Positions 3,013-60,549 of a stretch of 64,000 nucleotides of DNA are shown in pieces (within the stretch, counting starts at the first letter, position 1; each line of letters begins with the position of its first letter). Under the pieces are notes generated by a model, which was given only the letters and a program-made list of their open reading frames with translations, ran no database searches and had not been told where the DNA came from. The position numbers were made by a program, and so were the translations under genes. Source of the stretch: Alphaproteobacteria bacterium (GTDB taxonomy: Bacteria; Pseudomonadota; Alphaproteobacteria; Rhizobiales; Amorphaceae); NCBI GenBank assembly GCA_030431335.1, contig JAUIJH010000003.1, positions 5,496 through 69,495 of the forward strand, given 5' to 3'.

Positions 3013-3060
3013 AGCCTGTCACGCGCGCCGCCCGGCGCCGCCCCTGCCAAGAGGAAGCCC

Positions 3061-4626: not shown

Positions 4627-4654
4627 CGGGGCGCTCAGAGACGGGGTGCTCAGA
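4625..4654. repeat. 15-bp tandem duplication between convergent genes
   Basis: GACGGGGCGCTCAGA followed directly by GACGGGGTGCTCAGA (14/15 identical). Confidence 0.7.
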
Positions 4655-9552: not shown

Positions 9553-9592
9553 CCGGCGGACCCGTCCGCCCCGAGACCGATAGGAGAAGAGC

Positions 9593-12162: not shown

Positions 12163-13043
12163 GCGTAACCGCCGCCCCAGCGGGCGAGCCGCGCCGCCGC
12201 TCGCGGCGCCTGCGCACCGTGCGGCGCTTCTTCCGCCATCCCGGCGCGACGGGGGCGGTCGTCGTCCTTGTGCTGCTGGTGGTGGGCGCGATCTTCGCGC
12301 CGCTCATCGCCCCGTACGATTTCGTCGCCACCGACATGCTGGCGCGCCTCAAGCCGCCGAGTGCGGAACATCTGTTCGGCACCGATCTGCATGGGCGGGA
12401 CATCTTCTCGCGGATGCTGTTCGGGGCGCGCTACTCGCTGGCGGTGGGGTTCGCCACCGTGGCGCTGGCGCTGGTGGTGGGGGCGAGCGTCGGCATCCTG
12501 ATCGGCTATACGGGCGGGCGGGTCGACGAGTGGGGCTCGCGCTTCCTCGACGTGCTGCTCGGCTTTCCCGCCATCGTGATGGCCATCCTGGTGGTGGCGG
12601 TGCTCGGCGTCGGGCTCGTCAACGTGGTGATCGCGGTGGCGATCAGCCACATGCCGCGCTTCGCGCGCGTGGTGCGCGGGGCGGTGCTCGTCACCAAGGA
12701 GCAGCTTTACGTGGAATCGGCGCAGGCGCTGGGGGCGAGCCGGCTGCGCATCATGGCGCGCCACGTTTTCCCCAACATCGTGCCGACCTTGATCGTGCTC
12801 GGCACGCTCGACCTCGGCAATGCCATTTTGGGCACGGCTACGTTGTCCTTTCTCGGCCTCGGCGCGCAGCCGCCGACTCCCGAGTGGGGCGCCATGCTCA
12901 ACTCCGGCCGCGAATATATGCGCTACGCGCCCTGGTTGATGTTGTTTCCCGGCCTCGCCCTGTTCATTACCGTGATGGCGGTGAACCTCCTGGGCGACCG
13001 GCTCGCCCAGGTGCTCGACCCCCGCGCCAAGGACCGTGCATGA
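12159..13043 (+). CDS. ABC permease DppC/OppC-like
   Basis: HLFGTDLHGRDIFSR, YVESAQALGAS, GLGAQPPTPEWG, LDPR. Confidence 0.95.
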   Translation: MSVTAAPAGEPRRRSRRLRTVRRFFRHPGATGAVVVLVLLVVGAIFAPLIAPYDFVATDMLARLKPPSAEHLFGTDLHGRDIFSRMLFGARYSLAVGFATVALALVVGASVGILIGYTGGRVDEWGSRFLDVLLGFPAIVMAILVVAVLGVGLVNVVIAVAISHMPRFARVVRGAVLVTKEQLYVESAQALGASRLRIMARHVFPNIVPTLIVLGTLDLGNAILGTATLSFLGLGAQPPTPEWGAMLNSGREYMRYAPWLMLFPGLALFITVMAVNLLGDRLAQVLDPRAKDRA

Positions 13044-15384: not shown

Positions 15385-16110
15385 TCAGCGCGCAGCCGGC
15401 GCCCGGCTGAGCTGCCAGGCATCGAGGCGCTCGCCGGAGCGCGCCACGCGGCGCGCGGCGAGGGCGACGAAGGCCGGGGCGAGCTCCGCCGGATCCACCC
15501 ACTTCGCCTTGAGCGCGGCGTCGTAATTGCGCTCCGACATCGGCGTCTTCATGTACATGCCCGGTGTGATGGTGTTGACGGCGATGCCCAGCGGCGCCCC
15601 CTCAATCGCGAGCGACTTCATCAGCCCCTCCAGCCCGTGCTTGGCCGCGCAATAGGCGCTTTCGTCCGCAAATCCCTCGATGCCCGAGCGCGAGGAGACG
15701 TAGACGACGGCGCCGCCGCCATTCGCCGCCATGCCCGGCCACACCGCGCGGGTCAGCAGGAACGCGGCGAGGAGGCCGACGTCGACGGTGCGGCGCCAGT
15801 CCTCGAGGTCCATCGCGGCGAAGGGCTTGGGTGTCAGCACCGCCGCGTTGTGGATGAGGGTTGCCGCGGGGTCGGTATCGAGCCGCGCTTCTTCGAGCGC
15901 GGCCGCGGTCGCGTCGCCGTCCGACAGGTCGACGGCGATGGATTGGTGCCCGCCCGCCAGGGTCGCAGCCAGGGAGGCGAGGCCGTCGGCGTCGCGGTCG
16001 AGGAGGAGGAGGCGGGCGCCGGCGGCGGCGAGCGCCACGGCCACGGCGCGGCCGAGCCCCTGCGCCGCGCCGGTGAGCACGATCCGCTGGCCCGCCAGCA
16101 CCTGGCTCAC
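15385..16110 (-). CDS. SDR oxidoreductase
   Basis: GTG start overlapping the Gfo stop; TGAAQGLG, HNAA, YVSS, YCAAK. Confidence 0.92.
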   Translation of the reverse strand: MSQVLAGQRIVLTGAAQGLGRAVAVALAAAGARLLLLDRDADGLASLAATLAGGHQSIAVDLSDGDATAAALEEARLDTDPAATLIHNAAVLTPKPFAAMDLEDWRRTVDVGLLAAFLLTRAVWPGMAANGGGAVVYVSSRSGIEGFADESAYCAAKHGLEGLMKSLAIEGAPLGIAVNTITPGMYMKTPMSERNYDAALKAKWVDPAELAPAFVALAARRVARSGERLDAWQLSRAPAAR

Positions 16111-17180
16111 GCCATCTCGCTCATGGCGATCCAGCGCCGCTCGCGCCCGGAGCGCTTGACCGCGTCGAGCACCATCTGGTTGCGCCAGCCGTCGAGGAAT
16201 GTGGCACCCTCGGCCGGCGGGCGGCCCTCGGCGATGGCGGCCGCCAGCTCTCGCATCAGGGCCACCACCGACACGTTCCAGATGCCTTTGTTGACGCCCT
16301 CCAGCGCCGCGTTGGGATCGTCGACGCCGATATCCTCGAACGGCTCGCCGGCCCGCGCGAACTTCACGGACTCGCTGCTGTTCTCGATGATGATGGTGCC
16401 CTCGCTGCCGAAGATCTCCACCGTGTTGTCGAGCCCGTGCCGCGCCACGCCCGACAGGAACACGCTGACGAGCGGGCCTTGCTCCATTTCCAGCATGAAG
16501 TGGACGGTGTCGTCGGCCGTCGCGGTCCAGGCTTCGCCCGTGGTCTTGTCCTTGCGCTCCGGCACCAGGGTGAGGGCCTGGCCCGAGACGGCGGCCACCT
16601 CGCCGAGCCACCAGCGGATGAGGTCCACCTGGTGCGAGCCATTGGCGCCGAGCCGGCCGCCGCCCTCCGCCTCGCTCGACCACCAGTCGCCCTTCGGCCG
16701 CGAGGCCGGGTCGCCCCATGCCGCCGTGATGTTGGCGACATTCACGTGCCGCACCGTGCCGAGTGCGCCGGAGCGGATCAACTCGCGCACGCGGCGGCGG
16801 TTGGGGTTGAAGCGCAGCTCGTGGTCGATCATGTGGACGCGGCCCTTGGCCTCGGCGGCGTCGAGCATCGCCTTGGCCTCGCCGGCGTCCATGGCGGTGG
16901 GTTTTTCGCACAGGACGTGGGCGCCCTTGTCGAGCGCGGCCAGCGTCATCGCCGCATGCGTCACGGTGGGGGTGGCGATGGCGACGAGGTCGAACGCGTG
17001 CGCGTCCAGCATCGCCTGCCAGTCGTCGTAGGCATGGGGCACGCCGTAGGCGTCGGCGGCGGCGCGGGCGCTCTCGAGCCGCGCGCTGGCGATGGCGACC
17101 ACTTTAGCGCCCTCCACATGGGCGAGCGCCGGCAGGTAGGCGGCCTTGGCGAAGCTCGCGCCGATGATCCCGACCTTCAT
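16107..17180 (-). CDS. Gfo/Idh/MocA family oxidoreductase
   Basis: MKVGIIG, IATPT..H, HVLCEKP, GGGRLGANGSHQVD, EIFGSEGTI. Confidence 0.92.
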   Translation of the reverse strand: MKVGIIGASFAKAAYLPALAHVEGAKVVAIASARLESARAAADAYGVPHAYDDWQAMLDAHAFDLVAIATPTVTHAAMTLAALDKGAHVLCEKPTAMDAGEAKAMLDAAEAKGRVHMIDHELRFNPNRRRVRELIRSGALGTVRHVNVANITAAWGDPASRPKGDWWSSEAEGGGRLGANGSHQVDLIRWWLGEVAAVSGQALTLVPERKDKTTGEAWTATADDTVHFMLEMEQGPLVSVFLSGVARHGLDNTVEIFGSEGTIIIENSSESVKFARAGEPFEDIGVDDPNAALEGVNKGIWNVSVVALMRELAAAIAEGRPPAEGATFLDGWRNQMVLDAVKRSGRERRWIAMSEMA

Positions 17181-43761: not shown

Positions 43762-44783
43762 GCGAGCCGCTGCTGCAGACCATCGACCTCAAGGTCCATT
43801 TTCCGGTGCGGCGCGGCTTCGTGCTGGAGCGCACCGTCGGCAGCGTCAAGGCGGTCGACGGGGTGAGCCTTGCCATCGATCGTGGCGAGACGCTGGGCCT
43901 CGTCGGCGAATCGGGTTCCGGCAAGTCGACGCTCGGCCGCGCCATCCTCCAGCTCGTGGGTGCCACGTCAGGCACCATCTTGTTCGACCGGCGCGAGGTG
44001 ACGGGCCTCTCCGGCCCCGAGCTCGCCGCCTTCCGGCGCCGGGTGCAGCTCGTCTTCCAGGACCCCTACGCCTCGCTCAACCCGCGCATGACGGCGGGCA
44101 ACATCGTCGCCGAGCCGATCCGCATCTACGGCCTGCGCGAGAACCGCGCCGCGATCCGCGACCGGGTGCGCGAGCTGTTCGGCCTCGTCGGGCTCGACGC
44201 ACGCTATGTCGACCGCTACCCGCACGAATTCTCCGGCGGACAGCAGCAGCGCATCGGCATCGCGCGGGCGCTGGCGTGCGAGCCGGACCTCATCGTGTGC
44301 GACGAGGCGGTGTCGGCGCTCGACGTGTCGGTGCAGGCGCAGGTGATCAATCTCCTCGCCGACCTGCAGCAGCGCCTCGGCCTCACTTACCTCTTCATCG
44401 CGCACGGCCTCAACGTGGTGCGCCACGTCTCGACCAAGGTGGCGGTGATGTATCTCGGCAAGATCGTCGAGGTGGGGGACCGCCGCGCGCTGTTCCGCGA
44501 CCCGCAGCACCCCTACACCAAGGCGCTGCTCAGCGCCTCGCCGCTGCCCGATCCGGTGGCCGAGCGCCAGCGCCGGCCGATCATCCTGCGCGGCGACGTG
44601 CCGAGCCCCATCGACCCGCCCGCCGGCTGCCGCTTTCACACCCGCTGCCCCATCGCGGTGCCGGCCTGCTCGGCGGCCGAGCCCCCGCTCAGCCCTTCCG
44701 GCGGCACCTTGGCCGCCTGCATCCGAGCCGGCGAGCCCGTCCCGGCGCCCGACCCCACCCCAACGCGAGAGACTGTTCTATGA
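43758..44783 (+). CDS. ABC ATP-binding subunit DppF/OppF-like
   Basis: ATGA overlap; [25 protein letters not shown]. Confidence 0.95.
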
Positions 44784-46822
44784 TACGCATCGGCGTCGAT
44801 GTCGGCGGCACGTTCACCGACTTCGTGCTTGCGGGGGCGGACGAGGCCACGCTCCACTTCCACAAGACGCCGTCGACCCCGCACGACCCTTCCGAGGCCA
44901 TCGAGACGGGCCTGCGCCATCTCCTGGAAGCGCACGGCGTGGACGCCGCCGAGGTCGCCTATGTCGGCCACGGCACCACGGTGGCCACCAACATCGTCAT
45001 CGAGCGGCGTGGCGCGCGCACCGGCCTCATCACCACCAGGGGCTTTCGCGACGTGCTGGAGCTCGGCCGCCAGGCGCGCCCGTCGATCTACGACTATCGC
45101 GTGGAGCGCGCGCCGCCCCTGGTGCCGCGCGACCGCCGCGTGGAGGTGGACGAGCGCGTCGGCCCCGACGGCACCGTGCTCGTGCCGCTGGACGAAGCCT
45201 CGCTGGCGACCGCCGTCGCGGCGCTGAAGGCGGCCGGCGTGGAGGCCGTCGCCATCTTGTTCCTGCACAGCTACCGCATGGGCGCGCACGAGGAGGCGGC
45301 GCGGCGCGCCGTCGAGGCGGCGATGCCGGGTGTCTTCGTCAGCGCGTCGGCGGAAATCCTGCCGGAGTTCCGCGAGTACGAGCGCGTGTCGACCACCGTC
45401 GTCAACGCCTTCGTCGGTCCCCGGATGCAGCGCTATCTCGACCGCCTCAAGGGGCGCATCGCCGCGATCGGCATCCCGGTCGAACCCTACACCATCCACT
45501 CCAACGGCGGGCTGATGACGGCCGAGGCGGTGGCGATCGCGCCGGTGCGCACCTGCGTCTCCGGCCCCGCCGCCGGCGTGGTGGGTGCGGCGGAGGTGTG
45601 CCGCCTCGCGGGCTTCCCGAACCTCGTCACGTTCGACGTGGGGGGCACCTCCACCGACGTCTCGCTGGTCAAGGACGGCGTGCCCGCCTACACGGGCGAC
45701 CGCATGGTTGCCGGCTATCCGGTCAAGACGCCGATGATCGATATCGCCGTCATCGGCGCGGGCGGCGGTTCCATCGCGATGGTGGACGACGCGGGCGCCC
45801 TCAAGGTCGGCCCGCAATCGGCCGGCGCCACGCCCGGCCCCGCCGCCTACGGCAACGGCGGCACCGAGGCGACCATCACCGACGCCAACCTCGTCCTCGG
45901 CCGGCTCGCCCCGGCGACCCTGCTCGGCGGGCGCATGACGCTCGACGCCGAGGCCGCCCGCCGCGCGGTGATGGACAATGTCGCCACCCCGCTCGGGCTT
46001 TCCCTGGAGGAGGCGGCGCACGGCATCATCCGCATCGCCAACGCCAACATGAGCCGCGCCATCCGCTCCGTCTCCGTCGAGCGCGGCTACGATCTCGCCG
46101 AGTTCTCGCTGTGCGCCTACGGCGGCGCGGGGCCGGTGCATGCGGCCGAAGTCGCCATGCAATGCCACCTGCCGCAGGTGGTGATCCCGCGCGAGCCCGG
46201 CACGTTGTGCGCGCGCGGGATGCTCCTCACCGACCTGTCCACCGACACCGTGCGCAGCCACTTCGCCGACGCCGACGAGGCCTCCTGGCAGACGATCCTC
46301 GCCCTGTTCGCGGAAATGACGGCGGAGGGCGGCGCCTGGCTCGACCGCGACAACGTGGCGAGCGCGGACCGCAGCTTCCGGCGCGTCGCCGATGCCCGCC
46401 ACCGGGGCCAGAATTTTGAGCTGAAGGTGGATTGCGACGGGCTCGGCCCGGCCGATTTCGCCGCCTTCGTCGAGCGTTTCCACGAGGCGCACAGGCGCGA
46501 ATACGGCTACGCTATCGCGGGGCGGGGCATCGAGTTCGTCTCCTGCCGCGTGCAGGCGATCGGCGCCGTGGCGCGCGCGCCGCAGGCCGAGATCGCCGGA
46601 GGCCCCTCGCTCGAAGCCGCCATCACCGGGCGCCGGCCGATCTATGTCGACGCCGCCGCGGGCTGGCAGGAGGCCACCGTCTACCGCCGCGAGGCGCTGC
46701 CCATCGGCGTCCCCGTCGCGGGCGTCGCGGTGATCGACGAGATGAGCTCCACCACCCTCGTTCTGCCCGGCCAGACGGCCACCCTCGACCGCTACGGCAA
46801 TCTCATCGTGAGGATCAAATGA
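44780..46822 (+). CDS. Hydantoinase/oxoprolinase subunit A (HyuA-like, ATP-dependent)
   Basis: [55 protein letters not shown]. Confidence 0.95.
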
Positions 46823-48525
46823 CGCGCCTCGCCGACCCCATCGAGATGGAGGTCCTGAGCAATCAGCTCCTCGCCATCGCGGAGGACATGGGCTCGATCC
46901 TGATCCGCTCGTCCTTCTCCTCCAACATCAAGGAGCGGCGCGACTGCTCCACGGCGCTGTTCGACGCCGCCGGCCGGCTCATCGCCCAGGCCGACCACAT
47001 CCCGATTCATCTCGGCGCGATGATCGGCGCGGTGGAGACGATCCTCGCCCGCTACGATCTCGCCGACATGGCGCCGGGCGACGCCTTCGTCTGCAACGAT
47101 CCCTACCTCGCCGGCGGCAGCCACCTGCCGGACATTTCCATCATCACCCCCGTCCACCACGAGGGGCGCGTGCGCTATTTCTGCGGCAACATCGCCCACC
47201 ACGCGGACGTGGGCGGGCGCACGCCCGGCTCCACCTCCGGCACCTCGCGCTCGATCTTCGAGGAGGGGATCCGCCTGCCGGTGATCCGCATCGCCCGCGG
47301 CGGCGAGATCGATGAGGATCTGATCGACCTCATCACCGCCAACTGCCGCGATCCGGAAGAGCGGGCGCTCGACCTCAGGACCCAGATCGGCGCCAACCGG
47401 CGCGGCGCCCGGATGCTGCTCGACCTCACCGAGCGCGCCGGTTCCGAGACGCTCGGCCGAGCCATCAACGATCTCCTCACCTACACCCGCCGCCGCCTCG
47501 CGAGCCGCATCGCCGCACTGCCGGACGGCGCCTACACATTCCGCCGCGATCTCGACGACGACGGCTATGGCGGCGACACCGTCCCCATCGTGTGCACCGC
47601 CCGCGTCGACGGCGAGACGCTGGTGCTCGACTTCACCGGCTCCGGCCCCGAGGCGCGCGGCGCGGTGAACCTGCCCGACAGCGCGTTGAAGGCGTCGGTC
47701 TACTACTCGGTGAAGGCGGTGCTCGATCCGGCGCTGCTGCCGAACCAGGGGATGATCGACCCGATCCGCATCGTGTCGGAGCCCGGCACCATCGTCGACC
47801 CGCGCCCGCCGGCCGCCGTCGCCGCCCGCGCCGTCACCAGCAATCGGCTGTGCGGCGCGGTGTTCGGCGCCCTCTACCAGGCGCTGCCGCCGCAGGAGGG
47901 GATGGCCTCGTGCAACGATTCCACCTCCGCCACGTCGGTCTCCGGCTGGCACCCGCGCCGCCGGACGACCTACGTCTATCCCGAGAGCATGGGCGGCGGC
48001 GCCGGCGCCTTCGCCGACCGCGACGGCCAGGATGCGGTGCACGTCCACACCGTCAACTCCACCAACTTGCCCATCGAGGCGCTGGAGCTGGAGTATCCGC
48101 TGTTGATGGACGAGTACGCGCTGGTGCCGGATTCGGCAGGGGCGGGCACCCATCGCGGCGGCCTCGGCATGGCACGCCAGATCCGCTTCCTGGAGGACGG
48201 CACCGTGTTCTCGGCCCGCTCCGACGCCCACATCGTGCCGGCGCCCGGCGTCGCGGGCGGGCTGCCCTCGGGCGTCACGCGGATCGTGCGGAACCCGGGA
48301 CCGGACGGCGAGGAGCTGCATTCCAAGGCGTCCGGTCTCGTGATGAAGGCCGGCGAGACGGTGCGCGTCGAAACGCTGGGCGGCGGCGGCTATGGCCCGC
48401 CGGCCGGGCGCCCGCTGCCGCTGCTCGCGCGCGATCTGCGCGAGGGCAAGGTGACGCGCGCGGCCGCCGAGCGGGACTACGGCGCGGCGATGGTCGCAAG
48501 CGCCTTGGCGTTGGACCTTGGCTAG
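46819..48525 (+). CDS. Hydantoinase B/oxoprolinase subunit (HyuB-like)
   Basis: NIKERRDCS, HIPIHLG, NDPYLAGGSHLPD, HHADVGG, GGGGYG. Confidence 0.95.
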   Translation: MTRLADPIEMEVLSNQLLAIAEDMGSILIRSSFSSNIKERRDCSTALFDAAGRLIAQADHIPIHLGAMIGAVETILARYDLADMAPGDAFVCNDPYLAGGSHLPDISIITPVHHEGRVRYFCGNIAHHADVGGRTPGSTSGTSRSIFEEGIRLPVIRIARGGEIDEDLIDLITANCRDPEERALDLRTQIGANRRGARMLLDLTERAGSETLGRAINDLLTYTRRRLASRIAALPDGAYTFRRDLDDDGYGGDTVPIVCTARVDGETLVLDFTGSGPEARGAVNLPDSALKASVYYSVKAVLDPALLPNQGMIDPIRIVSEPGTIVDPRPPAAVAARAVTSNRLCGAVFGALYQALPPQEGMASCNDSTSATSVSGWHPRRRTTYVYPESMGGGAGAFADRDGQDAVHVHTVNSTNLPIEALELEYPLLMDEYALVPDSAGAGTHRGGLGMARQIRFLEDGTVFSARSDAHIVPAPGVAGGLPSGVTRIVRNPGPDGEELHSKASGLVMKAGETVRVETLGGGGYGPPAGRPLPLLARDLREGKVTRAAAERDYGAAMVASALALDLG

Positions 48526-48602: not shown

Positions 48603-50291
48603 ATGGTTAAGGTCGATATCGCCTTCGACGCCTACCACGACTACGACGCGATGACGGCGCACCTCGAAGCGCTGGCCGCCGCCTACCCCGAGCTCGCGAC
48701 GCTCACCTCGCTGGGCAAGACCTTTCGCGGGCGGGACATCTGGCTGATCGAGATCACCAATCCCGAGACCGGGCCCGGCGCGCAAAAGCCCGGCTACTAT
48801 ATCGACGCCCAGATCCACGCCGAGGAGCACGCCACCAGCGCCGTCGCGCTCTACGCCGCCTGGCATCTCCTCACCCGCTACGGCAGCGACGCGGAGGTGA
48901 CACGGCTCGTCGATGCGCAGGTGTTCTACATCCTGCCCCGCCTCAATCCGGACGGGGCCGAGTACGCGCTCAAGGCGCCGTACCATCCCTGGTGCGGCAA
49001 CGGCCGCTTCCTGCCGGGCGAGGATCGCCTGACGGGTCTGATCCCGCAGGACATCGACGGCGACGGCTTCATCACCTCCATGCGCGTGCCCGACCCCAAG
49101 GGCGAATGGAAGAAATCGGCCAGCGATCCGCGCCTCATGGTCCAGCGCGCGCCGGGCGAGGAGGGCGGCGAATATTTCCGCGTCTACCCCGAGGGGTTGA
49201 TCCGCGACTATGACGGCGTGCACGTGGCAATCGAGCGTCCGTTCGACGGCAACCTCAACCGCAATTTCCCGGTCAACTGGTCGCCGCGCGAGTATGGGGC
49301 CGGCGAGTTCGCCCTGTCGGAACCCGAATCGCGCGCGATGGCCCGCTTCATCGCCGACCATCCCAACATCTGCGGGCTGACCGCCTATCACACCCATGGC
49401 GGCATCATCCTGCGTCCCTCGATGACGCAGCCCGACGCGGCCATGAGTGCGCCCGACCTCGCCCTCTACCAGGACCTCGGCGCGGTCGGGGAAGAGCTCA
49501 CCGGCTACAAGACCATCAGCGTCTACGAGGATTTTACGCCCGACAAGACCAAGCCGCGCTACGGCAGCCTCAAGGATTGGACCTACGAGGAGCTCGGCAT
49601 CGTCAGCTTCTCCACCGAGCTGTGGGACATCGAGACGGAGGCCGGCGTCGAGAAGGTTGCGTACTACAATCTGCGGCCGCGCACGCCGGAAATCCAGGAG
49701 AAGGTGTTCCATTTCGCGCTGGAGCACGTCGGCGACATGGCCTACCGCGAGTGGACGCCGTTCGACCACCCGCAGCTCGGCCCGGTCGAGGTGGGCGGCA
49801 TGGTCTACATCTGGACCTACCGCAATCCGCCGCCGGCGATGCTGCCCGAGATCTGCCGCAACAACACGCTGTTCAACTTGCGCCACGCCGGGGCGGCGCC
49901 CTCCATCAAGGTGGATGAGCTGACCGCCGAGCCGCTTGGCGCGGGGCTCTACAAGGTGCGCGCCGTCGTCGCCAACCACGGCTACCTGCCGACCAACCTC
50001 ACCGACGTGGCGATCCGGAACGGCGTCGCCAAGCCTGTGAGTGTGCGGCTCGAAGGTCGCGGCGCGAGCCTGGTGATGAACCCGGCCCGCGTCGAGCTCG
50101 GCCACCTCGCCGGGCGCAACCAGCGACAATACACTTGGTCGCCCTGGGGGCAGAGCTGGTCGCCCGTGGCCAAGCCGGTGGAGTGGCTGGTGCGGGCCGA
50201 TTGCGACGATGCCGCCGTCGAAATCATCGCGGTGTCTGAGAAGGGCGGCACCGCTGTCCAAACACTGAAGCTGGTAAAATCTTGCGAATAG
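48603..50291 (+). CDS. M14 zinc carboxypeptidase-like protein
   Basis: SD AGGAGG; IHAEEHA (HxxE), LNPDG, NLNRNF, YHTHGG, TELW. Confidence 0.9.
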   Translation: MVKVDIAFDAYHDYDAMTAHLEALAAAYPELATLTSLGKTFRGRDIWLIEITNPETGPGAQKPGYYIDAQIHAEEHATSAVALYAAWHLLTRYGSDAEVTRLVDAQVFYILPRLNPDGAEYALKAPYHPWCGNGRFLPGEDRLTGLIPQDIDGDGFITSMRVPDPKGEWKKSASDPRLMVQRAPGEEGGEYFRVYPEGLIRDYDGVHVAIERPFDGNLNRNFPVNWSPREYGAGEFALSEPESRAMARFIADHPNICGLTAYHTHGGIILRPSMTQPDAAMSAPDLALYQDLGAVGEELTGYKTISVYEDFTPDKTKPRYGSLKDWTYEELGIVSFSTELWDIETEAGVEKVAYYNLRPRTPEIQEKVFHFALEHVGDMAYREWTPFDHPQLGPVEVGGMVYIWTYRNPPPAMLPEICRNNTLFNLRHAGAAPSIKVDELTAEPLGAGLYKVRAVVANHGYLPTNLTDVAIRNGVAKPVSVRLEGRGASLVMNPARVELGHLAGRNQRQYTWSPWGQSWSPVAKPVEWLVRADCDDAAVEIIAVSEKGGTAVQTLKLVKSCE

Positions 50292-50583: not shown

Positions 50584-52182
50584 ATGCAGGCTTTGTTACG
50601 AGGGATACTTGCGGGTGCGAGTATCGCTGTCGCGCTGACGGCTGCGCTGCCCGGCCCTGCCGCGGCGCAATCGTCGCTTGGGGACGGAACGCTGACGTGG
50701 GGCTATTACACGCGGCCCCGCAGCCTGGATCCCAACATCTGGTCCGGCGGCAGCGACCTCGGCGTCATGCGCCAGATCTACGATACGCTGATCTGGTCGC
50801 CGGAATCGGGCGCATTCGAGCCTGGGCTCGCCACCGCGTGGGAGATGTCGGACGACGGCCTCACCTACACCTTCACCCTGCGCGACGACGTGACCTTCCA
50901 CGACGGCACGCCCTTCAATGCCGAAGCGGTCAAGTTCATGTTCGACCGCATCAAGGATCCGGCGTCCAAGTCGCTCAATATCGGGGCCATCGGTCCCTTC
51001 GAATCGGCCGAAGTGCTCGACGAGTACAAGGTGGCCATCCACCTGTCCCGCCCCTGGGGCGCCTTCCTCACCAACGTGAGCGAGCCGCACCTGTCGCCCG
51101 TGTCGCCCAAGGCCGTCGCCGAGATGGGCGAGGGCGTCGCCAACCACCCGGTCGGCACTGGCCCGTTCATGTTCGACAAGTGGGAGGGCAACGACGTCCA
51201 CCTGGTGAAGAACCCCGACTACAACTGGGGCCCGGCATTCGTGGGCCACGAGGGGCCGTCCGCGGTGGAGCGCCTGGTGGTCAAGGAGGTGCCGGAGGCG
51301 TCCACGCGCATCAACGCGCTGCGCAGCGGCGAGGTCGATCTCACCCACTTCCCCGTGCTGTCGCAGGTGGCGGCGCTGGAGGGCGAGGGCTACAAGATCA
51401 CCCGCGTGCCGCAGCCGGGTTTCTCCTGGAGCCTGCCGATCAACGTTGAGAAAGCGCCGACGGACGATCTCAAGGTCCGCCAGGCGATGCTCTACGCGAT
51501 CAACAACGAGGCGATCGTGCGCGCGGTGCTGTTCAACCAGCATCCGCCGGCCTACGGCCCGCTGACGGCGACCACCTTCGGCTACGATCCCGCCGTCAAG
51601 GACATGTGGGGCTACGACCCGGAAAAGGCGGCCGCGCTGCTCGACGAGGCCGGCTGGACGATGGGCGCCAACGGCATCCGCGAGAAGGACGGCGAGCCGC
51701 TCACCATCGAGATGGCGATGTTCGATTCCTCGGTGAACAAGCAGGTCACCGAACTCGCCCAGGCGATGCTGAAGAAGATCGGCATCGACGCGAACCTCAC
51801 GGTGCAGAACTATCCCGCCTTCGCCGCCCAGGTCGCCGACCAGAACTACCACACGGCGCAGATGCGCTGGTCGGCGGTCGACCCCGACCAGGTGATCCCG
51901 ACCATGTTCTCCTCGGAGCAGGTCGACGGTGGCGGCCAGTTCAACCGCACCCGCATCAAGGATCCCGCCCTCGACGCGCTGATCACCGAGGCCGGCGCCG
52001 CCACCGACCCGGCGAAGCGGGCCGAATTCTACGCCGAGATCCAGAAGCAGGCGATGGAGAACGTCTGGCTCCTGCCGATCTTCGACGACGTCTGGTTCTG
52101 GATCGGCCAGGGCGACATCGACCACCTCGTCTACGACCGCCAGGGCCGGCCGATCCTCTACGCGGCCGAAGCGGCCAAATGA
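50584..52182 (+). CDS. ABC transporter substrate-binding protein, family 5
   Basis: Signal ending PAAA; SD AGGAGG; LRDDVTFHDGTPFNAEAVKF, PVGTGPF, YDPEKAAALLDEAGW. Confidence 0.95.
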   Translation: MQALLRGILAGASIAVALTAALPGPAAAQSSLGDGTLTWGYYTRPRSLDPNIWSGGSDLGVMRQIYDTLIWSPESGAFEPGLATAWEMSDDGLTYTFTLRDDVTFHDGTPFNAEAVKFMFDRIKDPASKSLNIGAIGPFESAEVLDEYKVAIHLSRPWGAFLTNVSEPHLSPVSPKAVAEMGEGVANHPVGTGPFMFDKWEGNDVHLVKNPDYNWGPAFVGHEGPSAVERLVVKEVPEASTRINALRSGEVDLTHFPVLSQVAALEGEGYKITRVPQPGFSWSLPINVEKAPTDDLKVRQAMLYAINNEAIVRAVLFNQHPPAYGPLTATTFGYDPAVKDMWGYDPEKAAALLDEAGWTMGANGIREKDGEPLTIEMAMFDSSVNKQVTELAQAMLKKIGIDANLTVQNYPAFAAQVADQNYHTAQMRWSAVDPDQVIPTMFSSEQVDGGGQFNRTRIKDPALDALITEAGAATDPAKRAEFYAEIQKQAMENVWLLPIFDDVWFWIGQGDIDHLVYDRQGRPILYAAEAAK

Positions 52183-52217
52183 TCGCGGCCGGCAGGCGAA
52201 GAGGCTGAGGCGACCCG

Positions 52218-53162
52218 ATGCGGCGTTATGTGCTGGCACGAACCCTCGCGGCCATCCCGGTGATGTTCGCGATGGTGCTGGTCGTCTTCCTCCTCCTCAA
52301 CGTGCTGCCGGTCGACCCGATCCAGGTGATGATCACCCAGTCCGGTGGGGGCCAGGTCCCCTCCGGCACCGCGACGCAGGAGATGATCGACTCGATCCGC
52401 CGCGAGCTGGGGCTCGACCAGCCGCTGCCGCTGCAATTCGTCTCCTACCTCGGCAACGTGCTCACCGGCGATCTGGGCACCTCCTACCGCAACAACCAGC
52501 CGGTGGCGCAGCTCCTTCTGGAGCAGTACCCCTACACGCTGCGCCTCGCGTTTTCGGGCATGTTCGTCACCATCGCGCTGGGGCTGTCGTTCGGCATCCT
52601 CGCCGGGCTGTGGCCCGGTTCGATCGTCGACCGCGCGCTCGTCTTCGTCGCCACCCTCGGCATCGCCGCGCCCACCTTCTGGCTGGGGCTGATGTTCATC
52701 TGGGTGTTCGCGATCGTCTTCCCCGTCTTCCCGGTGCTCGGCGTCGGCTCGGCCAAGGCGATGGTGCTGCCCGCCATCACGCTCGGGTTGCCCGGCGCGG
52801 CCATCGTGGCCCGCCTCACGCGCTCGAACCTCGTCGAGGTGATGCAGCGCGACTACATGCTCACGGCCCGCGCCAAGGGGTTGTCCAGCCGCCTCGTGGT
52901 GGTTCGCCACGCGATGCCCAACGTGCTCGCCCCCGTGCTCACCGTGATGGGTCTCCAGTTCGGCAACCTGATGACCGGCACCGTCATCGTGGAGACCGTG
53001 TTCAGCCGGCCCGGCATCGGCCGCCTCGGCGTCGACGCCATCCTCAACGCCGACTATCCCATCGTGCAGGGCTTCACTCTGGCGCTCGCCGCCTCCTACG
53101 TCGTGCTCAACCTCCTCGTCGACGTGCTGCAGATGGCGCTCGACCCCCGGGTGACGCGCTGA
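52218..53162 (+). CDS. ABC permease DppB/OppB-like
   Basis: GDLGTSY, RDYMLTARAKGL, LDPR. Confidence 0.95.
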   Translation: MRRYVLARTLAAIPVMFAMVLVVFLLLNVLPVDPIQVMITQSGGGQVPSGTATQEMIDSIRRELGLDQPLPLQFVSYLGNVLTGDLGTSYRNNQPVAQLLLEQYPYTLRLAFSGMFVTIALGLSFGILAGLWPGSIVDRALVFVATLGIAAPTFWLGLMFIWVFAIVFPVFPVLGVGSAKAMVLPAITLGLPGAAIVARLTRSNLVEVMQRDYMLTARAKGLSSRLVVVRHAMPNVLAPVLTVMGLQFGNLMTGTVIVETVFSRPGIGRLGVDAILNADYPIVQGFTLALAASYVVLNLLVDVLQMALDPRVTR

Positions 53163-54040
53163 TGGTCGACCGCCCGTCCATCCCCTCGCGCTTCGCCTTC
53201 GCGCTGCCACGGCCGGGGCGGGCGTGGGCGAATGCGCCGGCATGGCTGCGCCTCGCCCTGTCGCCGTCCACAATCGGGCTTGCGGCGATCGTGTTCCTGG
53301 CGGCGTTCGCCGGCTTCATCGCGCCCTACGGGCCGGCCGAGGTCGACCCGATCAACGCCCTCATGCCGCCATCGGCGGACTATCTCATGGGCACCGACCT
53401 GTTCGGCCGCGATGTCTTCTCGCGCGTCGTCTATGGCGGTCAGCTCTCGCTCACCATCGGCCTCACGGCAACGGCGATCGGCGCCACCATCGGCGTGCTC
53501 GCGGGCGTCGCGTCCGGCTATTTCGGCAGCTGGACGGACGGCGTCGCGATGCGCGTGATGGATGTGCTCCTCGCCTTCCCCGGCACCTTGATGGCCATCG
53601 TCATCGTGGCGGTGCTGGGGCCGAGCACCATCAATCTCATCCTCGCCGTGGGCATCGCGTCCTCGCCCGGCTACGCGCGCCTCGTGCGCAGCCTCACCTT
53701 GCGCCTGCGCCATGCGGACTACGTCACCGCCGCCGAGATCACCGGGGTCGGGCCGTGGACCATCATCGCCCGCCACGTGCTGCCCAACCTGCGCAACTCG
53801 GTGATCGTCTACGCGACGCTCGACATCGCGACGGTGATCCTGATCGCGGCGGGGCTCGGTTTCCTCGGGCTCGGCACCAAGCCGCCCACGCCCGAATGGG
53901 GGCTGATGGTGGCTGACGGCCGCGAGACGCTGCAGATCGCGTGGTGGGTGACCTTCTTCCCTGGCCTCGCGATCCTCGTCACCACCTTGTGCATCTACGC
54001 CTTCGGCGAGCGTCTCGCCGACATATTGGACGCCAAATGA
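53162..54040 (+). CDS. ABC permease DppC/OppC-like
   Basis: TGATG overlap; MGTDLFGRDVFSR, YVTAAEITG, GLGTKPPTPEWG. Confidence 0.94.
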   Translation: MVDRPSIPSRFAFALPRPGRAWANAPAWLRLALSPSTIGLAAIVFLAAFAGFIAPYGPAEVDPINALMPPSADYLMGTDLFGRDVFSRVVYGGQLSLTIGLTATAIGATIGVLAGVASGYFGSWTDGVAMRVMDVLLAFPGTLMAIVIVAVLGPSTINLILAVGIASSPGYARLVRSLTLRLRHADYVTAAEITGVGPWTIIARHVLPNLRNSVIVYATLDIATVILIAAGLGFLGLGTKPPTPEWGLMVADGRETLQIAWWVTFFPGLAILVTTLCIYAFGERLADILDAK

Positions 54041-54053
54041 GCCCGCTCCGCTG

Positions 54054-54722
54054 ATGCCCGCCCGCACGCCCTATCACATGCTGATGCGCCCGATGCCGTT
54101 GGCGCCCGTCGGCCCCGGTGTCGCCGCGCTCGTCCTCATCGACGTGCAGGACTTCACCACCTGCCGCGGCCGGGGGCTCGACGCGGAGGCGGCACGACGC
54201 GGCGTCGCGCGCGAGCTCGACGAGTATTTCGCGCAGGTGGAGGCGGCCAAGCGCAACCTCGCCCGCCTGCTCGGCGAATGCCGCTCGCGCGGCGTTCTGG
54301 TGGTGCATCTGCGGGCCGCGCTCGAAGCGCCGCAGAGCCGGCATTTCGCCGCCTCGGGGCTGGAGCGGCCGCAAAGCGCGGCGGCGGACGGCGCCACGCT
54401 GGGCGCGCTCGACGCGCAGCCCGACGAGCCCGTCATCGCGCGCGGCGGCTACAGCGCCTTCCACCGCACGGGCCTCGAAGACATGCTGCGCCAGCGCGGC
54501 ATCGCCACCGTTTTGCTCGCGGGCATGATGGCCAACATCACCGTGGCGCTGGGCGCGCGCGAGGCGGCCGACCGCGACTTCCAGGTCCTCGTCGTGCAGG
54601 ACGCCTCGGCGAGCGAGACGCTGGCCGCGCACGGCACCACCATGCAGGGCCTCGCCGGCGGCGCCATCCGCATCGTCGGCACCGGCGAGGCGCTCGCCAT
54701 GCTGGAGGGCCGCCGCCTGTGA
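54054..54722 (+). CDS. Isochorismatase/cysteine hydrolase family protein with non-canonical triad
   Basis: LVLIDVQ, YSAFHRTGLEDMLR, GMMANITVALGAREA (Thr at the Cys position, Arg at the Lys position); start uncertain. Confidence 0.8.
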   Translation: MPARTPYHMLMRPMPLAPVGPGVAALVLIDVQDFTTCRGRGLDAEAARRGVARELDEYFAQVEAAKRNLARLLGECRSRGVLVVHLRAALEAPQSRHFAASGLERPQSAAADGATLGALDAQPDEPVIARGGYSAFHRTGLEDMLRQRGIATVLLAGMMANITVALGAREAADRDFQVLVVQDASASETLAAHGTTMQGLAGGAIRIVGTGEALAMLEGRRL

Positions 54723-55693
54723 GCGTGATCCGCACCGTCCTCGGCGACATCGCGCCCGAAGCGCTCGGCATCACCGCCGCGCACGAGCACCTGTGGTGCG
54801 ACTACACCATGGCCAAGAGTGCGGACTTCCCGCGCACCGGCGAGCCGATGTACCTGCGAGACCTCGACATGGTGGTCGACGAGGCGGCGCGCTTCCACGC
54901 CGCCGGCGGGCGCGCCATCGTCGAAGTCACCGTGCACGGCTGGGGGCGCGACCTTGCCGCCCTCGCCGAGATCTCCCGCCGCACCGGCCTCCACGTGATC
55001 GCGACGGCGGGCTTCTACGTGGAATCCTGCCATCCCGATTTCGTGCCTCAAGCCAGCATCGAGACGTTGACCGACTTCCTCGTCGGCGAGGTGCTGGAGG
55101 GGGCGGACGGCGGGCCGGCGCGCTGCGGCCTGTTGAAGGCCGCCGTCGGCCAGGCGCTGATCGAGGGCAATGAGGAAAAGTGCATCCGCGCGGTCGCCCG
55201 CGCCCATCACCGCACCGGCGCGGCGATCACCACGCACACCTCCGCCTCGGCCCGCTTCCACATCGACGGGGGCAATGCCGGCACGATGTTCCTCGACCTG
55301 TTCGAGGAGGAGGGCGTGCCGCTCCACCGCGTGATCGTCGGCCACACCGACGAGAACGTCGACATCCGCCATCTCCGCACCCTTTTGGCGCGCGGCGCCG
55401 CCGTGCAGTTCGACGTCATCGGCAAGGAGCACTGGCTGCTCGACGAGACCCGCGCCGACCTTCTGGCGATGCTGTGCGCCGAGGGCCACGCCGACCGGTT
55501 GCTCCTGTCGGGCGACCGCAATCGCATGTCCGAAATGCACCGCAACGGCGGCAAGGGCTACGACTACCTTCTCACCCACTTCGTGCCGCTCCTCACCGAA
55601 CGGCAGATCACAGAAGAGGCAATCAACAAGATGCTGGTGGCGAACCCGGCCGAAATCTTCACGCTCCCCGTCGAAGGCGAGGTCGCCCCATGA
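54719..55693 (+). CDS. Phosphotriesterase (PTE/Php)-related amidohydrolase
   Basis: GTGA overlap; IRTVLGDI, AHEHL, GLLKAA, TTHT, GHTD, LLSGD, NKMLVANPA. Confidence 0.92.
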   Translation: MSVIRTVLGDIAPEALGITAAHEHLWCDYTMAKSADFPRTGEPMYLRDLDMVVDEAARFHAAGGRAIVEVTVHGWGRDLAALAEISRRTGLHVIATAGFYVESCHPDFVPQASIETLTDFLVGEVLEGADGGPARCGLLKAAVGQALIEGNEEKCIRAVARAHHRTGAAITTHTSASARFHIDGGNAGTMFLDLFEEEGVPLHRVIVGHTDENVDIRHLRTLLARGAAVQFDVIGKEHWLLDETRADLLAMLCAEGHADRLLLSGDRNRMSEMHRNGGKGYDYLLTHFVPLLTERQITEEAINKMLVANPAEIFTLPVEGEVAP

Positions 55694-57129
55694 GCGCGCC
55701 CGTCCTTCCCGAACTCGCGGCGCGCCGCGGGGAGACCATCGCGGCGATCAGCGACTTCATCCGCCAGCCCAGCATCAGCCTGGAGCGTCAGGCGTTGCCG
55801 GAGGGCGCCGCCTTCACCGCCGACGCGCTGCGTGCCATCGGCTGCACGGATGCCGAGGTGGTGGATGTCGGGGACCCTTATCCGGGCGTGTGGGGCACGC
55901 TCGATTTCGGCCGCCCCAAGACGCTGCTGATCTACGGCCACTACGACCTTCGCCCCGTCGGCACCGAGCCCTGGACGCACGATCCCTTCTCCGGCGAGGT
56001 GACCGCCTTCGACGGTTTCGACAAGGTGGTGATGGGGCGCGGCGCGGCGGCCAAGGGGCCGCTGATGGCGTTCCTCCACACCGTCAAGGCGATGATCGCG
56101 GTTACGGGCACGCTGCCGGTCAACCTCGTCTTCGCCATCGAGGGCGCCGAGATCCTGGGCAGCCCCAACTTTCCCGCGCTGGTGGAGGCGAAGGGCGGGC
56201 TCGAGGGCGTCACGGGCATCTTCGGCCCCCGTTCGAGCCAGACGCCGTCCGGCCTCGTCGGCTTCTCGCTGGGCTACAAGGGGCTCGTCTATCTCGATCT
56301 CGTCGCCTCGGGCGCCAAGTGGGGGCGGGGGCCCGATGGCGGCTCGGTGCACAGCGCCACCAACGTCGTGGTCGACAATCCGGCCTGGCGGCTCGTCGCC
56401 GCGTTGTCGACGCTGGTCGACACCGACAGCCGCATCCTGCCGCCCGCGCTCACCGCCGCCCTCGCCACCGACAAGGATCTCGCGGACTGGGAGGCCCCGC
56501 TCGTCGCCGACCTCGCGCGCCGCATCGAGGCGAACGGCGCCAACGCGGTGCTGCCGGGCCTCAACCCGTCCTTCCCCGTGCGCGTCTTCCGCGAGGGGCT
56601 CGACGGGGAGGCGCTCGCCCGGCGCTATCTCTACGGGCCGGCCATGAACGTCTCCAGCCTGCGCGCCGGCTACACCGGCCCCGGCACCAAGTCGTTCCTG
56701 CTGCCCCACGATGCCATCGCGACGGTGGACCTGCGCGCCATCTCGGCGGTGCCCGCCCGCGAACTGATCGGGCTGATCCGCGCCCATCTCGACGCGCACG
56801 GCTTCAGCGACATCGAGATCGTCAAGCGCGGCGCCTACGACTGGAACCAGACGCCGCTCGACGCCGACCTGATCGCCGCCGCCGTCGAGACTCACACCGA
56901 GATGGGCCACGAGGTTCGCCCCTGGCCGATGCAGGCATTCGGCGGTCCCTGGGCGCACTACGGCAAGCTCCTCGGCGTGCCCTCGCTGCAGGGCGGGGCC
57001 CCCGGCCTCGGCGCGCGCGCGGCCACCAGCGACGAATATTTCGTGCTGGAGGGCAAGGACGGCGTCGCCGGCCTCGACGGGCTGGAGCGCTTCTATGTCG
57101 CGTTCCTGGAGCGCTACGGGGCGGCATGA
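55690..57129 (+). CDS. M20/M25/M40 peptidase homologue with degenerate metal site
   Basis: ATGA overlap; YGHYD, PWTHDPF, GRGAAAKGP, IEGAEILGSP, LGYKG, VHS, NPAWRL. Confidence 0.85.
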   Translation: MSAPVLPELAARRGETIAAISDFIRQPSISLERQALPEGAAFTADALRAIGCTDAEVVDVGDPYPGVWGTLDFGRPKTLLIYGHYDLRPVGTEPWTHDPFSGEVTAFDGFDKVVMGRGAAAKGPLMAFLHTVKAMIAVTGTLPVNLVFAIEGAEILGSPNFPALVEAKGGLEGVTGIFGPRSSQTPSGLVGFSLGYKGLVYLDLVASGAKWGRGPDGGSVHSATNVVVDNPAWRLVAALSTLVDTDSRILPPALTAALATDKDLADWEAPLVADLARRIEANGANAVLPGLNPSFPVRVFREGLDGEALARRYLYGPAMNVSSLRAGYTGPGTKSFLLPHDAIATVDLRAISAVPARELIGLIRAHLDAHGFSDIEIVKRGAYDWNQTPLDADLIAAAVETHTEMGHEVRPWPMQAFGGPWAHYGKLLGVPSLQGGAPGLGARAATSDEYFVLEGKDGVAGLDGLERFYVAFLERYGAA

Positions 57130-58126
57130 ACGAGGGCCCGCTCGCCAGCGTCCGCAATCTCAGCATCGCCTTTCGCGGGCGCGGCGGCTGGCTGACGGCC
57201 GTCGACGGGATCGACCTCGCGATCGGGCGGGGCAAGGTGGTGGGGCTGGTGGGCGAATCGGGCAGCGGCAAGTCCGTCACCATGCTGGCGCTCGCCCGCC
57301 TCACCACCGGCCCCACGGCGAGGATCACCGCCGATGCGCTCGAGTTCGACGGTCGCGACGTGCTCGCCATGGGGCGGCGGGCGCTGCGGCGCCTGCGCGG
57401 CGGCGACATCGGCTTCGTGTTCCAGAACCCGCATCACAGCCTCAACCCGCTGCTCACCGTGGGCCGCCAGCTCTCCGAGGCGATGGTGGCGCACATGGGG
57501 CTGTCGCAGCGCGCGGCACGCGGCCGGGCGGCCGAGCTCCTCGCCCGCGTCGGCATTCCCTCGCCGGCGCGCCGCCTCGACGACTACCCGCACCAGTTCT
57601 CCGGCGGCATGCTGCAGCGCGCGATGATCGCGATGGCCATCGCCTGCGAGCCGCGCCTCATCCTCGCCGACGAGCCGACAACGGCGCTCGACGTCACCAT
57701 CCAGGCGCAGATCCTGGAGCTTCTGGCCTCCATCGTCGCGGAGACGGGGGCCTCGATCCTCCTCGTCACGCACGACCTCGGCGTCGCGGCCCGCATGTGC
57801 GACGACGTGCACGTGATGTACGCCGGCGAGATCGTCGAGCAGGCGCCCGTCGACACGCTCTTCTACCGCGCGCGGATGCCCTACACGTGGGGCCTGCTCG
57901 ATTCCATCATCCCGTTCGACGCCGCCACGCCGGACATGCTGCCCTTCATCCCCGGTCGCCCGCCGGCCCTCGCCGAGATCCCCGCCCACTGCCGCTTCCA
58001 CCCCCGCTGCGGCCATGCGCGCGAGATCTGCACCGCCGGCGCACCTGCGCTCGGGCCGCGCGCGGGCGCCGGGCACCTCGCGCGCTGCTACGGCACCGAG
58101 CCCGACGGCTGGCTGGAACGCAGCCG

Positions 58127-58130
<4 letters not shown>
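57126..58130 (+). CDS. ABC ATP-binding subunit DppD/OppD-like
   Basis: [34 protein letters not shown]. Confidence 0.95.
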
Positions 58131-59163
<1,033 letters not shown>

Positions 59164-59173
<10 letters not shown>

Positions 59174-60549
59174 ACGCCCCCGCCGTTCCCACCCTCGACC
59201 CGCAGAAGACCGCGCTGATGGTCGTCGACATGCAATATTTCGACGCGAGCCGAGACTGGGGCGAGGGCCGCACGGCCCAGGACCTCGGCGTCATCCGCTA
59301 TTTCGACGAGTATTTCGCGCAGATCGACACCATCACGCCGGTGATCGCCGATCTCATCGCCACATTCCGCGCCAAGCACATGGAGGTGATCCACATTCGC
59401 GTGGCCGAGCGGACGAAGGATTCGCGCGATGTCGGCCTCAAGCAGCTGGTGCGCGGCCTGATCGTGCCCTCCGGCAGCAAGGAGGCCGATTTCCTCGAGG
59501 GCCTGGAGCCGGCGGCGGACGAGATCGTCATCTCCAAATCGGCCTCGGGCGTGTTCGCGGCGACGGACCTCCACCGCATCCTGCGCAATATCGGGATCGA
59601 CACGCTGGTGTTCGTCGGGACCTCCACGGGCGGCTGCGTGCAGAGCGCCGTCTACGACGCGACCGACCTCGGCTACCGCGTCATGGTGGTGGAGGACGCC
59701 TGCGCCGATTCGACGTTCGCGAGCCACGCGGCCTGTATCGCCAACACGAAGAAGCAGGCGACCTCCGTCGTCGCGGCGGCGGCGCTCGGCGAGGCGCTTG
59801 CGGCTGCGGCGGACGCGGACCCGGCCCAGCGCAGCGGCATCGAGCGCGTGCGGCCCTACCTGCCGACGCGCCCGTTCCTGCCCAACACGCCGGGGGGCGG
59901 CGCGGCGGAGCCCTACTCCACCATTTTCGGCCCGGCCATCCAGCAGGCGCTGACCCCTGCGACGACCGCGCTCGTGGTCATCGACGCGCAGCGCCTGACC
60001 TGCGACCCGGCCTTCCGCAACGCCGGCCTGCAACCGCCGAACGCCGATTTCGAGGGCTTTTATGACCGCGCCGCAGACGCGCTGCCGCGGATGGGCGAGC
60101 TGCTGGGGCTGTGCCGCACGGCGGGGATCGCCGTGTTCCACGTGCGCACCGCCGGCAATCTTTCCGAGGGGAGGGATCTGGCGCCCAAGCGCCGCGCGTT
60201 GGGCCTCGCGCTGGCTGCGGACGACGAGGCCGCCGCCTTCATGCCGGAGGTGACCCCCGCGCGGGGCGAAGCCGTGCTCAACAAGCCCGCCAGCAGCGCC
60301 TTCAACGGCACCGCGCTCGACCAACTCCTCGCCAACGCCGGCGTCGATACGGTGATCCTCGCGGGTGTCTCGGTGGATTCCGGCATCGAATCCTCGATGC
60401 GCAGCGCCGGCGATCGCGGGTACGGCTCGGTCATCGCCATCGACGCGTGCGTTGCCGCCGCGTCGGTCGAGGCGCAGCTTGCCGGGGCGGAGCGCGGCAT
60501 CGCCAACGTGCGCACCGTGGCCGAGATCGCCCAGGCGCTCGCGCGTTAG
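59164..60549 (+). CDS. Tandem two-domain isochorismatase/cysteine hydrolase
   Basis: Domain 1: VVDMQ, SKSASGVF, GTSTGGCVQSA. Domain 2: VIDAQ, NKPASSAF, GVSVDSGIESS. Confidence 0.88.

Follow-up and report, generated by a model that had tools for sequence, protein, structure and literature searches.

A conserved M20 peptidase homologue lacking most metal ligands, encoded beside PTE-family and isochorismatase-like proteins

In this study we show that a stretch of 64,000 nucleotides from an alphaproteobacterium of the Amorphaceae (contig JAUIJH010000003.1; hereafter the window) encodes a homologue of the M20 peptidases in which one of the five canonical metal ligands of its family is present. The gene is not decaying, and its product has been repurposed as an enzyme or as a binding protein. 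M20 enzymes such as DapE, ArgE, the carnosinases and CPG2 are textbook co-catalytic metallohydrolases. The gene is an uninterrupted open reading frame (ORF) at 55690..57129 of the forward strand, running from the ATG at 55690 to the TGA at 57129 and translating into 479 amino acids with 0 internal stops. Its start overlaps the stop of a gene for a PTE-family amidohydrolase (PTE) in an ATGA at 55690-55693, and its stop overlaps the start of a gene for an ATPase of an ATP-binding cassette (ABC) importer in a second ATGA at 57126-57129. A first-pass annotation, made from the letters of the window alone, had called the frame intact and coupled on both sides, and the 479 codons without an internal stop and the two overlaps agree with both statements.

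By family models and by fold the protein belongs to the M20 family. It scores 38.2 bits against the Pfam model Peptidase_M20 (PF01546, cut-off 24.6) and a borderline 21.4 bits against M20_dimer (PF07687, cut-off 21), and a Pfam scan returned M20 domains only. A structure model, one of the checks that the first-pass annotation had suggested, was built with AlphaFold2 (AF2) from a 67-sequence alignment and gave a very confident M20A two-domain fold (pLDDT 94.9, pTM 0.93). When this model was submitted to Foldseek the top matches were 2pok, 4mmo, 4g1p, 2zof and 3dlj, with a probability of 1.00 for the first four, and the catalytic and lid/dimerisation domains are both present. The closest solved relatives by sequence are Sso-CP2 (4MMO, E 4e-30), 2POK from S. 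pneumoniae (E 1e-25), Dug1p and the carnosinases. Against the subfamily model PRK06446 of NCBIfam the protein reaches 142 bits with a cut-off of 369, whereas the canonical relative P0230 scores 406 bits. All ligand-poor members score below the cut-offs of the NCBIfam models, and their clades are without a solved structure.

The register of the motifs was taken from an alignment to 4MMO, 2POK and 4G1P (phmmer to PDB) and from two MAFFT alignments with up to 236 relatives, and these three independent alignments put the motifs at identical positions (Table 1). They bear out all the ligand losses that had been annotated in GRGAAAKG, EGAEI, GIFGPRSS and AATSDE. GRGAAAKG aligns with the canonical RGAxDxKG with a deletion of one residue, the bridging Asp being represented by a gap or by Ala, and His84 is the only canonical ligand left of the five. 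The general-base Glu of the family, Glu154, is present and invariant. The invariance of Glu154, His221, Arg349, Arg117, Lys122 and the lid loop was scored in 201 proteins without the bridging Asp; among ligand-poor proteins Asp86, Arg117, Lys122, Glu151, Glu154, Ser158, His221, Asn320, Arg349 and Glu449 are invariant or nearly so, and the same is true of the lid loop G-Y-T-G-P-G. We assume that the roles of these residues (general base, lid His in trans, carboxylate clamp) can be transferred from CN2, DapE and PepV; His221 in particular presumably acts in trans across the dimer, as in CNDP2 and DapE. Other positions are fixed in the clade of the window and differ from canonical enzymes, namely Arg88, Pro124, Ala153, Pro180, Gln184, Arg325, Gln387, Trp421, His423, Arg443, Thr446, Ser447 and a GxGP insertion at 212-215, and several of the new clade-specific invariants adjoin former ligand positions. 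Eight positions were set in advance, namely those of the five ligands and of the general base, lid His and clamp Arg. In windows of ±2 residues around them the mean entropy was 0.66 bits compared with 1.34 bits elsewhere in the protein, and 0 of 20000 random position sets were as low. By this measure no part of the M20 homologue is under stronger constraint than the former active-site region.

Homologue searches and ratios of non-synonymous to synonymous substitution (dN/dS), which the first-pass annotation had likewise named as checks, show that the substitutions are shared and that the gene is maintained. We found 717 relatives at E < 1e-10 in a word-indexed search and 1270 at E <= 1e-10 in an exhaustive search of representatives. 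All 71 full-length proteins with at least 47% identity, which come from Microvirga, Bosea, Roseomonas, Devosia and many metagenome-assembled genomes (MAGs), carry the same substitutions as the window protein, with slight variation only (GRGA[AV][AV]-KG, EGAE[IL], [GS]P[RKG] and A, P, Q or T at position 445). The dN/dS values by the Nei-Gojobori method were 0.089, 0.20 and 0.185 against orthologues of 96%, 87% and 75% identity, indistinguishable from those of the adjacent PTE, isochorismatase-like and permease genes. The M20 homologue is under purifying selection. Residues essential to the family have been lost and the protein itself is conserved, which is the sequence pattern expected of a pseudoenzyme; the opposite picture, of close homologues that keep the ligands next to a neutrally decaying copy, was not found, and the substitution patterns of the homologues together with dN/dS rule out neutral decay.

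The loss of ligands extends far beyond the window. Of the 236 relatives, 27 are canonical (HDEEEH); two ligands remain in 65, one in 77 and none in 57. Most of the two-ligand proteins read M-N-E-E-P-H, that is, the first His has become Met, the bridging Asp Asn and the third Glu Pro, and the EE pair and the last His are kept. Two trees, one by FastTree with 186 sequences and one by IQ-TREE (LG+C20 PMSF) with 70 sequences, were rooted on the canonical group, and both gave the same ladder from canonical proteins through the MNEEPH grade to zero-ligand clades; the clade of the window is nested within the latter via several branches with SH-aLRT values of 95-99. These trees argue that the di-metal centre has been dismantled stepwise in an old, widespread and uncharacterised branch of M20A. 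A pattern scan with one genome per species placed ligand-poor proteins in Dehalococcoidia, Sorangium, Woeseiaceae, Gemmatimonadota, Armatimonadota, Oscillospiraceae and one Odinarchaeote. The MNEEPH grade is very large (relatives P0124-P0266, loci L046-L089) and is spread over Woeseiaceae, Halieaceae, Gemmatimonadota, Sorangium and an Odinarchaeote. Its members have lost the three ligands of site 1 (His to Met or Leu, Asp to Asn, Glu to Pro) and retain the EE pair and the last His, and they may be mononuclear enzymes. Many of them are 500-530 amino acids long, which suggests N-terminal extensions or signal peptides.

The single remaining ligand of the window protein has a history of its own. 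His84 and His423 occur together in 70 of the 71 clade members, and outside the canonical group almost no sequence has either His alone. The sister lineage has Tyr at the position of His84, and Tyr to His is one base change. On the assumed rooting, and with quick tree searches, His84 was probably re-acquired together with the new invariant His423; this is the most parsimonious history because the clade of the window sits inside lineages without the His. The first-pass annotation was right that the HYD motif contains its His, but had taken the residue to be retained, and on the rooted trees re-acquisition is the likelier course.

The M20 homologue is also tied to particular neighbours. We found the same operon in Microvirga antarctica (58% identity), in three MAG or metagenome contigs (63-75%) and in two near relatives (87% and 96%) (loci L001, L004 and L007-L010), and the module formed by the M20, PTE and isochorismatase-like genes in a further locus (L084). 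Because the M20 gene is absent (at E <= 1e-80) from 60 related genomes, 16 of them of the same genus, it is an accessory gene. The operon copy of 75% identity (L009) is bracketed by several transposase genes (1-4790 and 15808-16544 of that contig), and these flanks together with the absence from 60 relatives indicate a mobile accessory island.

A reciprocal test was made by searching metagenome contigs with an alignment of PTE orthologues. Thirteen matches of at least 50% identity had 3 kb or more of sequence on either side, and at 11 of these 13 loci an M20 homologue lay no more than 2.2 kb away, accompanied by isochorismatase-like genes. All M20 proteins at these module loci are ligand-less and they come from three sub-clades. 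PTE relatives of 35% identity or less had neither an M20 homologue nor isochorismatase-like genes beside them. A ligand-less M20 gene no more than about 2 kb from a PTE orthologue of at least 50% identity and from an isochorismatase-like gene is also what the window contains. The order of the genes differs between loci and can be M20-IsoC-PTE, IsoC-PTE-M20 or, in an Armatimonadota MAG, divergent, where IsoC denotes the isochorismatase-like protein. The module is usually accompanied by a double isochorismatase-like protein, a peptide-type ABC importer and HyuA/HyuB, the last pair recurring next to it in L107, L111, L117, L160 and the window. The link to PTE and isochorismatase-like genes that the first-pass annotation had drawn from a single locus thus holds in the reverse direction and across phyla. 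Judged by these gene neighbourhoods, IsoC, PTE and the ligand-less M20 homologue form a conserved and horizontally mobile module found across phyla, in which the M20 protein is a fixed component, and there is strong comparative evidence that the three proteins depend on each other functionally, which is evidence about function and not about physical association.

The three sub-clades differ in their motifs. That of the window has HYD and GRGAAAKG, the second has CMxDTR, GRGAMGAKG and E[GT]EEIMGS, and the third has GMLDVR, ARGARAVKG and E[SG]DEILGS. In the CMxDTR sub-clade (L093, L094, L098, L099 and L145) Cys residues flank two former ligand positions (C-M-x-D and F-C-P-x-C), and this region could be a replacement metal site or provide a thiol nucleophile. 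L102 and L105 do not have the Cys cluster, which is therefore not universal.

More distant ligand-poor members occur in other surroundings, with an importer only (Bosea), with an IclR regulator only (Roseomonas) or with a gamma-glutamyltranspeptidase (GGT) and an importer. In a Pfam tally over 130 neighbouring ORFs at 19 dereplicated loci the prevailing families were SBP5 and permeases, amidohydrolases, D-glutamate-cyclase-like proteins, GGT and M24. Going by these annotations, the surroundings of the 19 ligand-poor members look like a setting of small-amide catabolism, in which working enzymes sit. A sister clade at 49% identity (SHYD, GRGALGLKG; L005 at 11465-13036, and L013) adjoins a GGT gene and a peptide importer, which is where a Cys-Gly dipeptidase would be expected in glutathione use. 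Genes for D-glutamate-cyclase-like proteins (GLUCM-like_C) stand beside zero-ligand M20 homologues at 4 of the 19 dereplicated loci (for example L006 at 8928-9899), and taken with the recurrent hydantoinase/oxoprolinase A/B pairs they hint at lactam or pyroglutamyl-type chemistry around the family.

We favour, at somewhat less than an even chance, the reading that the protein is a re-tooled metal-independent catalyst or ligand handler that acts on a carboxylate-bearing intermediate of the module. It would no longer be a Zn2 peptidase, and its ancestral pocket would still be in use. An amino-acid-like pathway intermediate would bind with its carboxylate end to Arg349 and the lid loop. Glu154 would be the general base or would bind an amine, and stabilisation of the transition state would fall to His221, contributed by the other subunit of a homodimer. 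In this clade Arg88, Arg/Lys181, His423, Arg443, Thr446 and Ser447 might take over the polarising, Lewis-acid role of the metals. We predict an amidohydrolase or ligand-processing activity whose substrate is an activated amide, ureido or carbamoyl compound, either a product of the PTE and isochorismatase-like enzymes or one that is passed on to them. The verified loss of ligands, the fixation of the pattern in 71 relatives and the existence of other ligand-poor clades across phyla all speak for such a role, as do the purifying selection, the conserved pocket with new invariants beside it, the confident fold, the reciprocal neighbourhood test and the small-amide setting of other ligand-poor members. 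Continued use of the pocket is to be preferred because a bare scaffold needs no invariant Glu, trans-acting His, carboxylate clamp or substrate loop. The first-pass annotation had offered a scaffold or binding subunit or else a metal-independent catalyst, within a putative multi-subunit complex. Of this proposal the maintenance of the gene and the tie to its hydrolase neighbours are borne out, and the retained pocket residues weigh against a bare scaffold.

Several points weigh against the favoured reading. The active-site strands of M20 proteins are buried, and the conservation there could be partly structural. His84 and His423 are missing from the other two module sub-clades, and for this reason the residues that distinguish the clade of the window cannot be a universal mechanism. 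A pure ligand-binding protein would also show an invariant Glu, His and Arg.

The main rival, which we hold to be less likely, is that the protein is a non-catalytic partner, a true pseudoenzyme, that binds substrate or product in its old pocket or just dimerises, and that serves PTE, the isochorismatase-like enzymes or both as a subunit for specificity, delivery, regulation or scaffolding. The M20 domain of Dug2p would be a precedent. The window protein has lost four of its five ligands and has a hydrophobic residue (Ile155) at the metal-2 position, and the tight co-inheritance with PTE and IsoC, which includes translational coupling, would suit a subunit. The neighbouring IsoC is itself without its nucleophile Cys, so that the module tolerates non-canonical members. 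On the other hand, Glu154 is invariant in about 200 ligand-poor proteins and the active-site region is the one under most constraint, and outside the module members often have an importer as their sole companion, a setting in which one expects an enzyme. We found no fusions to PTE or IsoC, which would fit a partner protein, among the relatives; the longer ones that we inspected as candidate Rosetta-stone fusions (P0190, P0252 and P0134) carry M20 domains only.

It is less probable still that this clade has regained a mononuclear metal site, built from His84, His423 and a carboxylate (Glu154, Asp448 or Glu449), so that the protein would be a metallo-amidohydrolase of altered geometry. DapE is known in mono-zinc forms, and in M20D enzymes a Cys serves as ligand. 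Such a site would explain why the two His are both invariant and why they are paired in 70 of 71 members and in almost no other relatives, and the Cys residues at former ligand positions (CMxDTR, FCPAC) of another module sub-clade would be a parallel. However, the other two module sub-clades have neither His, so that a rebuilt His site cannot hold for the module in general. Nor is their Cys cluster universal, and Ile155, Pro180 and Ala445 have been conserved where three of the ligands used to be. Finally, the low Pfam score (38 bits) and NCBIfam scores far below their cut-offs might suggest that the gene is a decaying pseudogene or that a faulty alignment masks an ordinary dipeptidase, but this explanation is effectively refuted because the homologues share the pattern and dN/dS is 0.09-0.2, and an intact, translationally coupled ORF, identical residues fixed in dozens of orthologues, the agreement of three alignments and the confident AF2 fold also stand against it.

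Comparison with known systems gives partial parallels. Sso-CP2 (4MMO), 2POK and the PRK06446 subfamily are the top matches by sequence and structure (TM-score 0.76-0.83), and Sso-CP2 and 2POK share the two-domain architecture and have the HYD, RG..KG, EG.E, lid-His and DxR motifs in register with the window protein; however, they carry all five ligands (HDEEEH) where the window protein has one, and the identity is only 22-25%. The CNDP-type dipeptidases (mouse CN2, 2ZOF; human CNDP1, 3DLJ; yeast Dug1p, 4G1P) have the same fold, and their general-base Glu, in-trans lid His and carboxylate-binding Arg are conserved at homologous positions. These are Mn/Zn2 enzymes, whereas the window protein is without the bridging Asp, the metal Glu, the third Asp and the last His. 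The yeast protein Dug2p, to which the first-pass annotation had pointed, is reported (Kaur et al. 2012) to have an M20 domain that is without peptidase activity and mediates dimerisation. The system resembles ours in that an M20 domain without the expected chemistry sits inside a hydrolase system, that of Dug2p-Dug3p in glutathione degradation. The analogy is a loose one: Dug2p is eukaryotic, has N-terminal WD40 repeats and a GATase-II partner (Dug3p), whereas the window protein has none of these and is flanked by IsoC, PTE and ABC genes, and the homology is no closer than family level.

Two further systems are instructive. Creatinase and ectoine hydrolase have the M24 pita-bread fold of metallopeptidases, have lost the ligands and are metal-independent C-N hydrolases of small-molecule catabolism. 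They are the conceptual precedent for the favoured reading; fold and clan differ (M24/MG compared with M20/MH). The p-aminobenzoyl-glutamate hydrolase AbgA/AbgB is a bacterial M20 system of two subunits, both of them M20 proteins encoded side by side. In contrast, the contig of the window has no second M20 gene, which also rules out a heterodimer with an adjacent canonical M20 protein; a 390-aa M20 gene does occur nearby in L004 and L005, and this is not general. In the literature that was searchable, most subscription journals lying outside it, we found no description of a metal-less bacterial M20 clade, of a metal-free catalyst with the M20 fold, or of a cluster of PTE, isochorismatase and M20 genes. 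A review of pseudopeptidases from 2024 does not treat M20, and MEROPS lists "non-peptidase homologues" generically.

Public data contain a large M20 branch, spanning phyla and hundreds of clusters, that is without the di-metal site yet under selection, and one part of it is locked into a conserved module of three hydrolases. Automatic database names of the "metallo-hydrolase" kind are misleading for these proteins, whether they are catalysts or binders. If they are catalysts, this would be new chemistry for the M20 fold and an added case of the loss of metal dependence; if they are binders, they would be one of the few well-defined pseudo-peptidases of bacteria, with a set of partners that can be identified. 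More speculatively, and in our view doubtfully, the ligand-less clades might be the first metal-independent catalysts of the M20/MH fold, and the module, together with HyuAB and a peptide-type importer, a pathway for a natural product of the ureide, hydantoin or lactam type in which the final C-N cleavage takes place here. The Zn2 centre would then have been exchanged for side chains, Arg/Lys and His in the clade of the window and other solutions in its sister clades. If this were true, the series of canonical, MNEEPH, zero-ligand and His-pair proteins would be a natural record of a dinuclear metalloenzyme turning metal-free. The module is tractable for study because Microvirga antarctica carries the same operon.

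In the window the nine genes from SBP5 to the double isochorismatase-like protein (50584-60549) form one tightly coupled run (Table 1), in which the stop of IsoC also overlaps the start of PTE (GTGA, 54719-54722).

Table 1. Coordinates in the window of the M20 homologue, its motifs and the surrounding genes
Feature	Coordinates	Strand	Evidence
HyuA/HyuB (hydantoinase/oxoprolinase-type) pair	44780..48525	+	Pfam; recurs beside module elsewhere
M14 carboxypeptidase homologue, 562 aa, long C-terminal extension, between HyuB and importer	48603-50291		
SBP5, binding protein of peptide/nickel-type ABC importer	50584-52182	+	Pfam
Importer permease 1	52218-53162	+	
Importer permease 2	53162-54040	+	
Isochorismatase-like protein (IsoC), 222 aa, without nucleophile Cys (ANITV)	54054..54722	+	
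PTE-family amidohydrolase; HxH, Lys, His, His, Asp positions present	54719..55693	+	Pfam PTE 229 bits; alignment to 3pnz, 1bf6
Ligand-less M20A homologue, cytoplasmic, catalytic and lid two-domain fold	55690..57129	+	Translation, Pfam, AF2, Foldseek
His84 in GHYD, sole canonical metal ligand; probably re-acquired	55939..55941	+	Alignments, trees
GRGAAAKG: bridging Asp deleted/replaced; Arg117 and Lys122 kept	56035..56058	+	Alignments
EGAEI: general-base Glu154 invariant; metal-ligand Glu replaced by Ile155	56140..56154	+	Alignments (canonical EGxEE)
GIFGPRSS: third acidic ligand replaced by Pro180, then Arg/Lys181	56215..56238	+	Alignments
His221 (VHSAT), invariant lid-domain His	56350..56352	+	Conservation
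Arg349 (DLRA), invariant; homologous to CNDP-type carboxylate-binding Arg	56734..56736	+	Conservation
His423 in GGPWAH, clade-specific invariant His, appears with His84	56956..56958	+	Clade alignment
ARAATSDE: C-terminal metal His replaced by Ala445; Arg443, Thr446, Ser447 new clade invariants	57013..57036	+	Alignments
ABC ATPase 1 of same importer	57126-58130	+	
ABC ATPase 2 of same importer	58127-59173	+	
Tandem double isochorismatase-like protein; first domain has Cys (GGCVQ)	59164..60549	+	

In being without the Cys, the short IsoC resembles true isochorismatases (EntB, PhzD); the cysteine hydrolases have their Cys where ANITV stands. The best PDB matches of the importer's binding protein were at similar scores an uncharacterised binding protein (5U4O), NikA, HbpA and DppA, with slightly higher scores against the NikA-type nickel/metallophore binders and 5U4O than against DppA or OppA. 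These differences are too small to discriminate, and a substrate class based on the binding protein was dropped; the idea that the substrate brings its own metal was also dropped, as unsupported. The M14 carboxypeptidase homologue upstream of the importer is also kept in the relative of 96% identity (L007).

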